Assembly: GCA_035221665.1 (NCBI GenBank)
Contig: CM069158.1
Span: 38,502,001-38,566,000, forward strand
Source: Okamejei kenojei
Taxonomy: Eukaryota
Length of the DNA stretch: 64,000 nucleotides
Direction of reading: 5' to 3'
This document shows positions 28,709 through 43,496 of this stretch, in pieces. The notes under the pieces were generated by a model. The model did no database searches and was not told where the DNA came from. It worked only from the letters and a program-made list of their open reading frames with translations. Both the position numbers and the translations under genes were made by a program. Numbering within the stretch: position 1 is the stretch's first letter; every line of letters starts with the position of its first letter.

Positions 28709-30543
28709 TAAGGATCAGTTCCTACACAGTGAAACACATGATCCCATACCTTCAAAGAAGTTAATTGGGTTAGATTGACTGAAATAGCTTAACCTGTCCT
28801 CATAAATTGGGAAGGTGCTTTAAAAACAGCTTTAAAATAATGAATAAAAAAAGAGACCCTTCTTCACAGTACAGGAGTCAGAGCACCATGTTATAGATGT
28901 ACAAGACATTGATAAGGCCATCCACTTGTGTTGGCACTTTCATGGAGTCACAGAGTCATGTAATTATGTACGTTCACCCCTCAATCTCTCGGTTCCACAC
29001 CACTCCCCCGGCCTGACCATTTGCTGTGCAGGTCCAGTCCTGCATTGTCCTATCAAAATGCTGCTCCTTGCGTCGATCTGAATAAACCGTTTACCGTTCC
29101 TCGGCCCATTGGAGGCTCATCTTTCTCCCTCTGCTTCCTCACGGCCTTGCACCAGGCTCCCACTCTGATGCACATCTTCTTCTGCTCTTACTCTAGAAGT
29201 CACCAAATCATCTCCACTGACTTTCATTTTCTGGACCAACTCCCAAATGTTCAACGTTGACACGACTGTTCTCAGTCTTTCTGCAGTTCACTGGCGAGGC
29301 TGTATTAGGCTGTCGTTCATCTACGGACAGAGAGAGGAGAATTGGGTTGCAAAAATGGGCTGCAGCAAAGTAATCAAACAATGACTTTCTGTCAAACACA
29401 CGGAACCTGCCAAATATATTAAACAATCAAGGTTCAGTAAATATGAACAAACTAGTATTACTCACAAATACACCAAAAATGTGCAAGCTTCAACACTGAT
29501 AAGGAGCCGATGAACGACACCGCAGATTTCTGAAAGATGTGATTTTAGATATAGTGGATTATCTGTTTATCGTCTTCTGAATATTTATATATTCAGGAAT
29601 TGTTTGTGTAACAAATGTGATTCAACTATCTATGAACAGAGGAAAGGAGTTGTTGGGGAAGAACTGATCCGTTATCCTCATGACAGTGAGCGGGAGAATG
29701 CTGGAGTCTGTAATGAAGTGCAAATAAATGATACAGTTGTGCAAAGTCAACACACATTAATAAAGTGAAGGGAAAGGCAGGAGAGGGTGAAGAATTGGTC
29801 AGTGATAGGCGGATACAGACAAGGAGGGAAATTTGCAGATGGATAGAGATGGTAGCCAAAACTGGAGGTGAAATAGAAATAAAGGGGTGCAGATGTGCAA
29901 TCTGATCAGGAGATCGGGAGTGAACTGCAGAACCTGAGGGAGGATTGGTCGGAGGAAGGGGATAGGAGTGGGAATGGGAGGAAACTGGGGAGGGAAGGTG
30001 ACAGAGTAGGGAGGGATGTGAGATGAATGGATGGAGGAAGGAACTGAGTGATGGGGTGGTGGGTGGAAACAGGGTTGCGCCCTGGGCAGGCAGGGTATGA
30101 GGAGATTGGATAAATGAGAAGGAGAGGTGGGTTACCGAGACCATACGTGGACTGGCACACTGGAGGGATAGATGTCTGCAGATTCAGTTTCACCCAAGTA
30201 CGGATGTGTTTACCACAGAGGGAGAATAGTGAGGATGTGTGGGGTATTTCCAGAGATGTTTAAAATGGTCAACAAATGTGAGAACGTGTCATTGAAACTT
30301 ACTGAATTGTTCAAAGTCTTTGACAGAGTAGATGCAGGGAGAATGGGTCCTTCCCCGAAACACACAGCCTAGGACTATGGTGCCCAGTCTCAGAACGAGG
30401 AGCTGTTTATTTAGGACTAAGATGAGGAGCAATGTCTTCACTCGGGGCTGGTGAGTCTTGGACTTTCTCAGCGCCAGTGGGCTGTGGCGGTTCAATGTGG
30501 GAATTCAAAGCGGACAGACAGATTTCTCCACATTAAGAGAGTT

Positions 30544-30694
30544 CTTCTTCTTCTTCTTCGTCTTCTTTCGTGTGGCGTGCACGGCCTAAAGTTGTCGGAC
30601 AACTTGTTCTATTTGATCTTCCGTTTGTGCACGTCGAGTTGATTGCATTAGTCGAAACAAGACGGACCACGTGAAGGTTGCAATCTTCCACCCC
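30544..30694 (-). mobile_element. Short non-autonomous non-LTR element (Ingi/Vingi- or RTE-like) with a 5' HDV-like ribozyme and a (GAA)n tail, copy 1
   Basis: 12-bp TSD attaagagagtt (30532-30543) / attatgagagtt (30695-30706), a GAA tail, and homology to 43368-43496. Confidence 0.85.
30641..30694 (-). ncRNA. Minimal HDV/CPEB3-like self-cleaving ribozyme (predicted)
   Basis: GGGGTGG(P1)-AA-GATTGCA(P2)-ACC(P3)-TTCACGT(L3)-GGT(P3')-CCGTCTT(P1')-GTTTCGA-CTAA(J4/2)-TGCAATC(P2'). Confidence 0.78.
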
Positions 30695-31194
30695 ATTATG
30701 AGAGTTGAGGGATATGGTAAAAGTGTGGGAAATTGTGCCGTTATCAGGTGGAGCAGACGTGCAGTGCTGTTTGGTCATCCTGCCCCTATCATGACAAATG
30801 GAGGCTTTGGAAATACTACTGCAAATCTTCTGCTGCATAATCTTGTCGTGATCATGATGTGATACTTGCTACATTTGCTGACCGGGGACAATATCTTTAT
30901 GTGGCCAGACTTCACCCGATAAAGTGAATCCATAATTCTCAACGTTCATAGAGTTGCACAGGCCCATCAGCCCAACTTGCCCATACTGACCTATCCATGT
31001 ACCCAGTCTAAATGTCACTTCAACATTGTGAAAGCATATCTCATATATCTCTGATTGAATATCCTTTGTTAATATTATTTATTCTCACCTCAAACCCACA
31101 TCTGGTACTACTCACTGTTTAGCCAGACCACACCATCTTTGGTTCAAAATGAAAGGATTTCCTTTGGTTTTCTTTGAATTATACATGTGCATGC

Positions 31195-32612: not shown

Positions 32613-33573
32613 CTATGGAACGGCACTCAGCACAGCTTCCGCAAACGTTGCGGGGGCAGCCACCGGCTTATTGTAGAAGCGTTGAAAAGTGGTCTCACTG
32701 GCCCAGCCCGTGGTAGCGAGGACATGATCCATGCGAACCTCCATGGTCCTTGCCGCTGATGTGGATGCAGCCCTGGTAGAATGAGATTTAAAAATATTAG
32801 TGTCTATACCTGCTGCACCCAACACCACCCTGAGCCACCTGGCGATAGTCTGCACAGTCACCCAGTGATGTGGGTTCTTGTGGCTGATGAGTAGTCCCTG
32901 CTCCATCTTCCGGATGGTGCGTGTGATCTTGATGTAATACCGGAGATGGGTGGCTATGCAGAGGGTGGCATCAGTGGGGTATGTCGGAATTCCAGCTGCA
33001 GCCCTGTAGATCCTGGTCTATGCTGCTTTAGTAACTCTTCTATGAAGAAGGTTACCTTCTCAGGGGTCGAGACCATCTGTCCAGTTGCAGTTTCTGCAAG
33101 GTCTGAACCCGCTGTGCTTCGGTCAGTGCCATCAACATCACCACTTTAAAGGTGAGTTTATCGAGCGGTAACCCTGTCATGGGGGACCAGCTCCTTAGTA
33201 GGGTCAACGCCACCCCTACATCCCAGGTGATGTTGTATCTGGGTCATGGAAGGTTGGTATTAAATACACCCCTCATAAATTTGGACACCAATTGGTGTGA
33301 GCCCACACCAATGTTGAGGTATGAGGAGAGCGCACTCCTGGCGCTATTGATGGCACTGTAGCTGAGACCCTCATCATAATGAAGGCCCGCGAGGAATTCC
33401 AGTACGCCAGGGATCGTGGCAGAGTTGTAAGTTGCATTTGTTCATGTGCAGTAGGCTTTCCACTTCCTGATTTGGGTAAGGTATTGCTTCCTGGTAGATG
33501 CCCTGCACGATGCTGTGATGAGGTCCATGGCCCTGGATGATATGCCGGACTGCAGTAGTGGCCTCCTCAGAAC
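32613..33573 (-). pseudogene. DIRS tyrosine recombinase (stops/frameshifts)
   Basis: Motifs GISSRAMDLITAS.RASTRKQY...W, PGVLEFL...LSYSAINSARSALSSYL, FKSHSTRAASTS and GWASETTFQRFYNK. Confidence 0.9.
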
Positions 33574-35470
33574 CTGCAAGCCAACAGGTTTAGGTGATCA
33601 TGGCACGGGTGAATTTCCCCAGTAATGGGATTAGTGACCAAATTGGGGCTTTTAGCAATTTGTAGCCATGGAATTTTTAGCATATGGAGGACCACCGGGA
33701 ACCATGGTTGTGTAGGCCAGTCAGTTATGATCAGTATGCCTGATGCAGAATCCAGTTCAATTTTCTGCAATACCTGACTGATGAGGCAGAATGGGGGAAA
33801 TGCATAGCAGAACCATTTCCCCCAATGGAGAGAAAATGCATCCATTGCTACTGCCCCAGGGTCTGGTTCCCAAGACACATATGTTGGTATCTGATGGTTC
33901 AACCTAGACGCAAAAAGGTCGATATCTGGTGTACCAAATTTAGCTATAATTTTAGCAAATATTTGGGGATTCAACATCCACTCGATGTTATCATTGAATA
34001 CTCGTGACCTGGTGTCCGCCACTGTATTGAGCTTCCCTGGAAGGTAGTTTGCTGATATCCAAATATTTCTTTCAATACACCAGAGCCAAATTGTGTTTAC
34101 CAATTCGTCACAAGATACTGACCTGATACCACCCATATGATTTATATAAGCCACCCACAGTGGTATTATGTATTTGAAGACGGACATGCGTATGATGTAA
34201 ATTTGTGCAGTATGCCCGCAGCCCATGAAAAGCTCCTAGCATTTCCAAATAGTTTATACCTTGTGACTGAAGAAGAGTGGACTTGTGAGAATCCCATCTG
34301 CTCCCCAGCCTTGGGTGCTTGATTCGATTTGTAACATCACTGATGGGTTGCAGAGAATGATGGGTTTGCAACACTCACTAATATTGTTAACCCACCATTG
34401 TAGCTCAATTTTAGCCTTGATCGGCAGCTGCATAGGTCTGTCAAAGTGTCCAGCATTTGCTTTTAATGCTGAAATTTTTGCTCTTTGCAAATTTTGATAA
34501 TATAATGGGCCAAATTGTGCAGCTGAAAATGTAGCTACGAGTTTCCCAATCACCTTAGCAGCATGCCTGATGGTTGGCACCCTGGCGCAAGCAAGGCTGT
34601 TACATGCATCTTTTATGGCTATTGCTTTGCCGGCTGGGATAGTGGCAATCATTTGATTGGTGTTAATAGTGAATCCCAGGTAGTCCATGACTTGAGACGG
34701 GGTGAATTTAGATTTGTCTGGATGGATGACAAATCCTAGCGTCTCGAATAATAATTTGGTAGCTGTAACTGCCAGCTCAGTTAATTCAAGGGTTTCCCCC
34801 ACTATTAATATATCGTCTAAGTATGCCATGATGATATAATTTTGTTGTCTAAGGGACGCCAAAATAGGTTTGATAATTTTCGTAAATAGCCTAGGGGCTG
34901 TTGTAATTCCATTGGGCAAGGCTTTATATTGCCATAATTGACCCCTCCAGACAAATTTTAAGAATTTCCTATGATGCTCTATAATAGGCACTGTATAGTA
35001 TGCATCTTTTAAATCGATGCAGGCCATAAAGTACCCTTTAGAAATCAGCTGTTTAGCTGTTTCAAATGTCTCCATTTTGAAATGGGTATATTGTACAAAA
35101 GTATTCAAATGGGTTAGATCTATAATAATGCGACATCCACCATCTTTTTTAGTTTTTGTAAAGATGTTGGACACAAACTCATGAGGTTCATGTGCCATTT
35201 TTTCTATCACCCCTTTGGCTGACAGCCTTAAGATTTCTACATGTCCTTCCTCTATCTCTTTTTGAGAGAGCGCAAACATGCGATGAGGTACAAGTTGCAT
35301 AGGGGGGAAGTTTCCCATTAATAAACTATTTCATAACCCTGAATACTTTGTAGAATAAAGGGATCTGAAGTTATCGTACCCCATGCACCCCAAAATGCCC
35401 GCAACCGTCCTCCTACTTGTGAGGTTACAATTGCTACTTTTTTTAAAGAACCAGACCCCCTTACCTCCAT
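33567..35470 (-). pseudogene. DIRS pol: reverse transcriptase, RNase H and Dam-like adenine methyltransferase domains (frameshifted)
   Basis: N-terminus VGGRLRAFW...DPFILQSIQGY. RT motifs IDLKDAY, LPNGITTAP and YLDD. RNase H INYLEMLGAF. Methyltransferase DIDLFASRLN...YAFPPF. Confidence 0.93.
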
Positions 35471-35570
35471 AGTTATCGGCGGGGCCTGGTGTGTTGTGCT
35501 TTCGCCGGCCGTTGTGTTGCTGGGTAGGGCTGTTGCCGCATCTTCTATGCGGACTTCTGCTGGCCCTGCC

Positions 35571-37180
35571 CTATAAAAGGCTTCTGCTGTTGGGGAGCGG
35601 GTGGCGGATAAGCTCTTGGTGCCCTATCCGGCTGACCCCGAGGCTTGGAGTTGGGTAAGGTTGGGGTCTTCGGTATGCCTGTGTCCTGGTTGTTGATGGA
35701 GGTTTCATTAGCCCCACGGTTTTGGCCTCCTCATCCAGTTCTTTGACCTGCTGAGGCAGGTCCTCCCCAAACAGCTGTCTTGGTGGTGGTGTGGTGGAGG
35801 TACGACACAACCCAGCAAATTTTGGGTTGAGGGTGGGCCGGATGGAGCTTTTCCGAAAGCAGTTGATCTCAAACAGGGTATTGCACAACAGGGCGAGAGC
35901 ATCCTGCTGTTCTCCAGTTACGTTGGCCCCATCGAGGGTCCTGGCAAACGCCGTGATGCCCAACGTCAACAGCTTCTGGATTTTTTGAATTTTGAGCTCC
36001 TGGGCCCTGATACTGGGACTGATGTTCCCCCAGATAGGTAGGTTGACGGTTGGAAGGTTCAGGGTAACACAATTCTCTGGAGCCTTGTATTTTTCCATGG
36101 CCTCTGTGAGTTCCTGTTCTTGGAGCTGGTGTGTGGCCAGAAAATTGATACTCGCCGCCAGTTTTGGGTGCAGCGGTTTCCCTGAACGCACAGGCTTAGC
36201 AAACTTCGAAACTACGTCCAACAGATCTTCTTCTGGTTCTCCCGAAGCAGTGGGCCCTTCTACCGTGGCCTCTTCATCAAAGTCGGCCATCTGCTGCCTT
36301 CTGGCACTGCCGGCGGATGAGGGAGAAATACTAGGTGGCGGCATAATCTGGCACCTAGACCGCTGGGCCCCACGCTCGTGTCGATCCAGGACTCGTTGGA
36401 GTAGTTGCTCCACCATAAGCTCCATCCTAGCCATGCGCCCGCTCCTGCGGGGCCGTACAACTCCCGCGCGGACATGCCGCTAGTCCGCCGTCGTTCGGAC
36501 TGTAGCGGCCCCCCTGCCTGATAGGAAGGCAGTGGTGATGAGTCGGTGCCGGCTCCCGCAGCCGGGCTCCCCGACGTCCGCGCGGGCTTACCGCTACTTC
36601 TGACCACATGGGTCTGTGACGGCGCATGGTCGTCGCTTACTGCCTCAGCGGGGCCGCACGACCAAAATCCGCTGCCACCGGCCTGCACTCTGGCAGCCTG
36701 ACCCGGTGGTGTGCCGGTACCTCCTGCTCCTGCAGGGCACCCCGACTCTCCAGCAGAACTCCCACCGGCCTGCAACCTAGCAGGTTTCCCGGCAGTATGT
36801 CGATGCCTGCCGCAGCTGCGGGGCTCGACTTCGACGCAGCTCTCCCCCGGGTCTACCCTCTGGGGACCTGTAAAAGAGGGGAAGTAGAACGCGCCGCTGT
36901 GCGAGGCACGTTAGGACGTACCTGCTTACTACCTGACTTTGGGCGATGGCAGTGTGAAGTCAGGGTCTGTAATACCCTTCTCCTCTGCGGAGCTCCATCC
37001 AGTCTATTGTGGAGGAGAATCAGGCCCTACTAACTCCGTAGGGTTCCCCAACTGCCGCACCTTTTTACCCGGCCGTGATACGGGTGCTGCCGGTGTTGCG
37101 GGCAGCTCCGAGGATGTTGGCCGCTGACTTCCTGGAGTCCCGCGGCCCTTCGAAAGTTTAGATTTTCCTTTTCCTTCCAT
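35571..37180 (-). pseudogene. DIRS gag-like ORF1 (interrupted)
   Basis: ORF 35571-36434 (KYKAPENCVTL..P.VN..IW...RQLFGEDL) lies upstream of pol. A basic N-terminus MEGKGKSK starts at 37180. Confidence 0.8.
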
Positions 37181-43367: not shown

Positions 43368-43496
43368 TCTTCTTCATCTTGCGTATGGCGTGCACAGCCT
43401 AACGTTGTACACCTACATCTATTTGTTTATGTACACCGGGTTGAATGCATTAGTCAAAACAGGGTGGACCACGTGACGGCTGCAATCTCCTACCCC
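43368..43496 (-). mobile_element. Short non-autonomous element with a 5' HDV-like ribozyme and a (GAA)n tail, copy 2
   Basis: TSD catcctaaact (43357-43367) / tatcctaaact (43497-43507), and homology to 30544-30694. Confidence 0.82.
43443..43496 (-). ncRNA. Minimal HDV-like ribozyme, degenerate copy (predicted)
   Basis: GGGGTAG-GA-GATTGCA-GCC-GTCACGT-GGT-CCACCCT-GTTTTGA-CTAA-TGCATTC, with single mismatches in P1 and P2. Confidence 0.65.

Follow-up and report, generated by a model that had tools for sequence, protein, structure and literature searches.

What is a fold resembling the ribozyme of hepatitis delta virus (HDV) doing at the 5' end of a short retroelement in a vertebrate genome? The question is raised by a stretch of 64,000 nucleotides from Okamejei kenojei (assembly GCA_035221665.1, contig CM069158.1, positions 38,502,001 to 38,566,000 of the forward strand; hereafter the window, in whose numbering positions are given), where an element of 151 bp, tail included, lies on the minus strand at 30544..30694. 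We assign it to the young subfamily of a family named S1 here. The original prediction had described it as resembling a short interspersed nuclear element (SINE), with a 54-nt minimal ribozyme as its head, that borrows the machinery of a long interspersed nuclear element (LINE). Our findings favour, with a probability of roughly three in four, a reading in which S1 is a non-autonomous element derived from the ends of a Vingi LINE, released by its ribozyme at the first nucleotide (G1) and mobilised in trans by the Vingi protein.

The predicted ribozyme occupies 30641..30694, with G1 at 30694 (all features of the element are on the minus strand). An HDV descriptor written for this analysis gave this single match in the window, both strands included, and none in 60 dinucleotide shuffles. 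Every part of the nested pseudoknot was located as originally described: the 5' strand of helix P1 at 30688..30694, that of P2 at 30679..30685 after a 2-nt junction (J1/2), P3 (ACC/GGT) with its loop L3 at 30666..30678, the 3' strand of P1 at 30659..30665, the junction J4/2 (CTAA) at 30648..30651 and the 3' strand of P2 at 30641..30647. L3 reads TTCACGT, the heptamer of the Rfam CPEB3 consensus; U20, C22 and G25 are present, and C44 (30651) stands at the catalytic-cytosine position. The description of P4 as reduced to about 5 nt was borne out, the gap between P1 and J4/2 being 7 nt (30652..30658), of which two, G37 and U38, are partners in P1.1 and five form a link replacing P4, as judged by the descriptor and by the comparison with a sister family given below. 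The S1 head follows the HDV-like order, a 7-bp P1 beginning with a G1-Y pair followed by P2 and P3 in a nested double pseudoknot, weakly so in the window copy. The HDV core positions G1-U36, U20/G25, C22-G37 and C44, as defined in PMC4836649 and PMC6326823, are all present in S1, and a one-pair P1.1 is also found in the CPEB3 ribozyme (PMC4836649). The first 54 nt of S1 are predicted from these features to form an HDV-like double pseudoknot without P4 that would cleave itself before G1.

The copy in the window is not the best representative of this fold. A single G-U pair had been claimed for its P1; we found four, at positions 1, 2, 4 and 5. In the family alignment, two substitutions in the 3' strand of P1 (C33T and C35T) depart from the S1 majority, and the summed energy of P1 and P3 is -4.0 kcal/mol in the window copy vs -12.4 kcal/mol in an intact S1 copy. 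Because the two substitutions leave four G-U pairs in P1, the window copy is probably a weak ribozyme, a weakened passenger of its family.

At the other end of the element, the predicted (GAA)n tail was found at 30568-30544. The element is flanked by a 12-bp target-site duplication (TSD), with the 5' copy at 30695..30706 and the 3' copy at 30532..30543. The claim that G1 lies exactly against this TSD held for the position of the boundary, not for the perfection of the repeat: the two TSD copies differ by one mismatch, and the locus alone is ambiguous by 1 nt because the base after the TSD is G on both sides. The boundary was settled at G1 by family data. Forty S1 copies were taken in list order, selected on positions 22-50 only and irrespective of their 5' ends. 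Across positions -10 to -2 the commonest base had a share of 0.28-0.38; this rose to 0.55 (T) at -1 and reached 0.88-1.0 over positions 1-7. Of the 40, 34 had a TSD of 9-16 bp, which in 33 of these ended within -2 to +4 of G1, and median identity to the S1 majority was 97.3% (n = 40). In a second set of 30 copies, selected on positions 46-76, G1 was present in 29. Family 5' ends thus pile up at G1 in both sets, as predicted. Near-identical S1 sequence also occurs in public runs under eight organism labels, and contigs of 8 such runs cease to match S1 at G1, with mixed flanks beyond. No RNA run was listed among those with S1-like sequence, and contigs do not reveal where an RNA ends.

The S1 element measures about 135 nt and has thousands of genomic copies. 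A DNA search of the genome with S1 gave 1,298 candidates, and a 29-nt internal pattern gave 4,058 exact matches (none for the reversed pattern). The latter number is a floor, because none of 7 S1 copies met within 633 kb fetched for other purposes carries the pattern; their density suggests a count of order 10^4, a rough figure drawn from loci that overlap and are repeat-rich. Single copies show that subfamilies vary at P1 pair 5 (U-G, U-A or C-G). The window itself holds a second, older S1 copy (43368..43496, minus strand) that is 77% identical to the first, with a 10-bp TSD and a Watson-Crick U-A at this pair. Dispersed copies, variable TSDs and a simple-repeat 3' tail are those of a retroposon without long terminal repeats, inserted by target-primed reverse transcription (TPRT). 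The existence of a family without RNA polymerase III boxes was confirmed: no A or B box was matched in an intact S1 copy and no tRNA was found in the window. S1 thus lacks the tRNA-, 5S- or 7SL-derived head with A and B boxes of a polymerase III SINE, and is probably better described as the joined two ends of a LINE, a bipartite derivative, than as a SINE.

Three further features of the family were observed. T precedes G1 in 22/40 copies of the first set (L031-L070) and in 13/30 of the second, a possible insertion-site bias. In six copies (L101, L102, L103, L106, L107 and L412), the innermost ~31 nt are flipped, precisely from one P2 arm to the other, and the arms form a perfect 7-bp inverted repeat; these are likely independent micro-inversions. 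A longer variant of ~160 nt, with ~25-30 extra internal bases, is rare (2 copies found, L105:1474-1635 and L190).

Several results weigh against our interpretation, and they are set out here with the alternatives they favour. The pile-up at G1 would also be expected if the 5' end of S1 were set by the fixed start site of an internal RNA polymerase II promoter in the head, the fold being secondary or serving RNA-end protection. A precedent exists in Pr77 of L1Tc, promoter and ribozyme at once (PMC3383444). Relevant to this possibility is a sister family, S2, a second short element of ~165 nt with TSDs and a P4-less ribozyme head, of which 26 copies were seen (L214-L217, L219, L221, L327-L346). 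The geometry of the S2 head is identical to the 54-nt layout of S1, and S2 agrees with the Rfam CPEB3 consensus over the stretch that begins at P3 and ends with the GU following P1. G1 is absent from many S2 copies, which fits a promoter, and in some S2 copies P1 is short of one C.

Eight S1 and eight S2 heads, picked for full length, were compared. Paired cells amounted to 95.5%, vs 38-50% in slid controls, and 10 of the 18 pairs had changed on both sides (3 in P1, 5 in P2, 2 in P3), while L3, C22-G37 and C44 were kept; T20, C22, G25, G37 and C44 were invariant in 16/16 heads. The covariation score was 0.583 vs 0.03-0.16 for slid controls. The predicted P1-P3 covariation holds against the sister family, and we read it as a kept fold to which no probability is attached, because it is a single comparison of two families and the number of both-side-changed pairs was equalled or exceeded in 210/500 shuffles. 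A DNA promoter would not need paired positions that vary freely while pairing and catalytic-core bases are kept. Counting further against a promoter, the 5' boundary of S1, S2 and two LINE families described below (V1 and V4) falls exactly where an HDV ribozyme would cleave. These data make the promoter explanation unlikely.

Release by an active ribozyme, as we propose, has also to be weighed against the possibility that the head is an inherited relic, killed by the loss of P4, whose copies spread by another route. Cleavage of the head is a prediction. Scanned with Rfam, neither the window nor the element gave a ribozyme match, nor did the intact copies L038 and L300; none of these three S1 heads reached the 35-bit cut-off of the CPEB3_ribozyme model (RF00622). 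The non-pseudoknot minimum free energy (MFE) of the 150-nt window copy is unremarkable (z 1.16), and the MFE structure of the 135-nt S1 lacks P1, in a model that leaves pseudoknots out. J4/2 is CUAA in the window copy and the main S1 subfamily, which fails the C-R-R-A of the HDV-like descriptor in PMC6326823; it is CGAA in 23/30 copies of another subfamily (second set) and CCAA or CCGA in S2. Conversely, 27/40 S1 copies pass a strict descriptor, P1 plus P3 of an intact copy differs by no more than 0.2 kcal/mol from the MFE of the 54 nt, and S1 and S2, with different stems, have the same P4-less geometry. Phage HDV-like ribozymes without P4 cleave in vitro (PMC10879173). An inactive relic is accordingly held to be quite improbable.

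The likely source of the ribozyme head emerged from LINEs. Scanning the genome with the Rfam CPEB3 model yielded 30 loci over the cut-off, with a best score of 66.8 bits, among 59 scored of 141,138 candidates; none exceeded it in 14 control prokaryotes. These loci are the 5' ends of repeats, the best score being reached by heads of LINE family V1 (L193, L196 and L198, on G000 C14 and C27, were noted). Heads of V1 and V3 carry P4. Two heads, L198 and L218, lead into remnants of endonuclease (EN) and reverse transcriptase (RT) that close with a Cys/His motif and a GAA run. With 200 aa of L223 as the query, the genome gave 2,956 candidates, the relatives being EN+RT proteins of ~990 aa in which no RNase H match was found. 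Sorted by 3' end, the copies retrieved make up six families or more, most of which end in W-x3-4-stop, a short untranslated region (UTR) and (GAA)n. Family V4 is young, with pairwise identities of about 92-97% (L279, L289 and L259 among its loci), and is a candidate recent source of the enzyme. Its copy L279 is full-length and frameshifted; a 13-bp TSD abuts G1, P1 is perfect and P3 is that of S1 (ACC/GGT). The V4 head has a long P4 and a P2 that needs a bulge, and its fold, missed by both the descriptor and Rfam, was parsed by eye.

These LINEs follow the Vingi plan as given in PMC13708176, namely a length of about 3 kb and a single open reading frame (ORF) that encodes RT and an APE endonuclease but no RNase H; RTE elements have the same plan. 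Of the first 40 nt of Vingi-2_Gav, 35 are matched by the head of the V2 copy L195, compared by eye with the supplement of PMC5786205. The best outside RT scores were 100-111 bits for Nimb and 64-97 for the CR1 group, in a comparison that lay outside Ingi, Vingi and RTE proteins. The Vingi label rests on this architecture, the outside RT scores and one printed 5' end. The PDB yielded no Vingi protein, the best match being L1 ORF2p.

S2 links the short elements to these LINEs. In 28/30 loci, S2 from nt 94 onwards matches the 3' terminus of family V6 at 82-92%, so that a bipartite element's 3' end is shared with a LINE; the 5' end is shared in one V6 copy, which starts with the S2 head. This sole copy (L365) is decayed, lacking the 3' strand of P2 and the EN region, and it could be a chimera. 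For S1, the 3' body (30569..30640) folds into nested stem-loops. The old subfamily reads DVVFWCLQL-stop before the last 25 nt, the W-x3-4-stop pattern (here W-x-x-x-L-stop) with a short 3' UTR in which Vingi-type ORFs end. The last bases of S1 also resemble Vingi-type ends, ACACGA and a GAA run being found in V3, V5 and V7.

An autonomous LINE sharing both S1 termini, as the original prediction would have it, was not found in five aimed pattern searches, in which 30/35, 8/8, 31/109, 69/85 and 30/435 loci were read; only S1 variants, deletions and truncations were returned. Of the 69 old-tail copies read, 63 have the head, 5 are 5'-truncated and in 1 the head is inverted; a junction with a Vingi ORF occurs in none of them. 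One could therefore ask if the driver was another LINE ending in (GAA)n, either a young Nimb/I-type family or an RTE; the missing parent is compatible with this. What came back from a search with PF14529 was Nimb, CR1-group and L1 elements; an S1 end or a descriptor match was seen in none of them. Judging by their protein features, we provisionally call the other LINEs Nimb, CR1 and Rex1. One Nimb/I-type element (L188, G000:C2:28224500-28231500) is young, with an open 401-aa ORF1, an open 1,276-aa ORF2 and a (GAA)n tail. Nimb was rejected as the S1 parent, its 3' end having only the GAA run in common with S1. Bipartite derivatives and ribozymes are both known from RTEs (PMC5786205). Another driver is very improbable in view of the Vingi-like last bases of S1 and the tracing of its sister S2 to a Vingi-type LINE. 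The partner, first given as Ingi/Vingi- or RTE-type, is narrowed to Vingi-type by the ends and the S2-V6 link; RTE, whose gene plan is the same, is less likely. A Vingi origin of S1 is what we infer.

Taking S1 as a Vingi derivative, its life cycle may be pictured as follows. S1 probably arose by the joining of a Vingi LINE's 5' and 3' ends and would be transcribed by host read-through. A transcript crossing an S1 copy would fold the head and cleave before G1, giving a unit-length RNA. The Vingi endonuclease/RT would act in trans, binding the stem-loop at the 3' end of this RNA together with the (GAA)n tail. TPRT would then insert a new copy and generate the 9-16-bp TSD, a step proposed because of the TSD, the tail and established non-LTR biology.

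The general design, a LINE deletion derivative with a ribozyme head, is already known from trypanosomes and flies. NARTc, RIME and SIDER, of the trypanosomatid L1Tc/ingi clade (PMC4035085), are like S1 short non-autonomous LINE derivatives with an HDV-like ribozyme at the 5' end. Their head is the 77-nt Pr77 with P4, whereas that of S1 has 54 nt, no P4, a CPEB3-type L3 and a one-pair P1.1, in a vertebrate genome. Ingi is the sister clade of Vingi. The R2 SIDEs of Drosophila are likewise internally deleted LINE derivatives with such a ribozyme; they are rDNA-specific with a long ribozyme, whereas S1 is dispersed with variable TSDs (PMC3414825). Bipartite derivatives that consist of LINE ends only, without a polymerase III head, are described for RTE, Ingi, Vingi and R2 (Vingi-1_EE derivatives and RTE-N among them; Kojima 2018, PMC5786205); Vingi is not among the six ribozyme-bearing clades in the available part of that paper. 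An HDV core without P4 is shared with drz-Mtgn-1 and the theta ribozymes, but nearly 99% of these minimal ribozymes are reported from tailed phages, often beside tRNAs (PMC10879173), whereas S1 carries its core at the head of a vertebrate retroelement. With the mammalian CPEB3 ribozyme (RF00622), S1 has in common the L3 heptamer, the GU after P1 and a G-rich P1. CPEB3 is a single conserved intronic locus, whereas S1 has other P2 and P3 sequences and no P4 and is not matched by the model; the S2 and V1 heads are far closer to it.

We found no link between Vingi and ribozymes, CPEB3 included, in the open literature examined, a search that left aside subscription journals, bioRxiv supplements, patents, Repbase and Dfam, where this may already be described. 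We give even odds to a wider picture in which Vingi would be a LINE clade whose ribozyme heads have gone unrecognised, its miniatures would have spread P4-less 54-nt ribozymes to thousands of sites in one vertebrate genome, and the CPEB3 ribozyme of mammals would be a 5' end domesticated from Vingi. The last point, a tamed transposon end, is suggested by sister elements that begin with sequences nearly copying the CPEB3 ribozyme of mammals, and heads near-identical to the Rfam consensus make its origin directly testable. If active, S1 would place a minimal natural HDV-like ribozyme at thousands of sites in one vertebrate genome, each able to cut same-strand transcripts crossing it; the Vingi clade, which is under development for gene insertion (PMC13708176), would join the ribozyme-bearing LINEs, and the defined 5' end of its RNA would be explained.

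Elsewhere in the window, ORFs of at least 200 aa are repeats or transposon remnants. Three of them, on the minus strand at 33567-36479, carry RT motifs, and we take them to resemble a DIRS-type retrotransposon. The repeat families D5-D8 belong to an abundant dispersed repeat of ~90-160 nt, with at least 18 copies in both orientations, often as inverted pairs.
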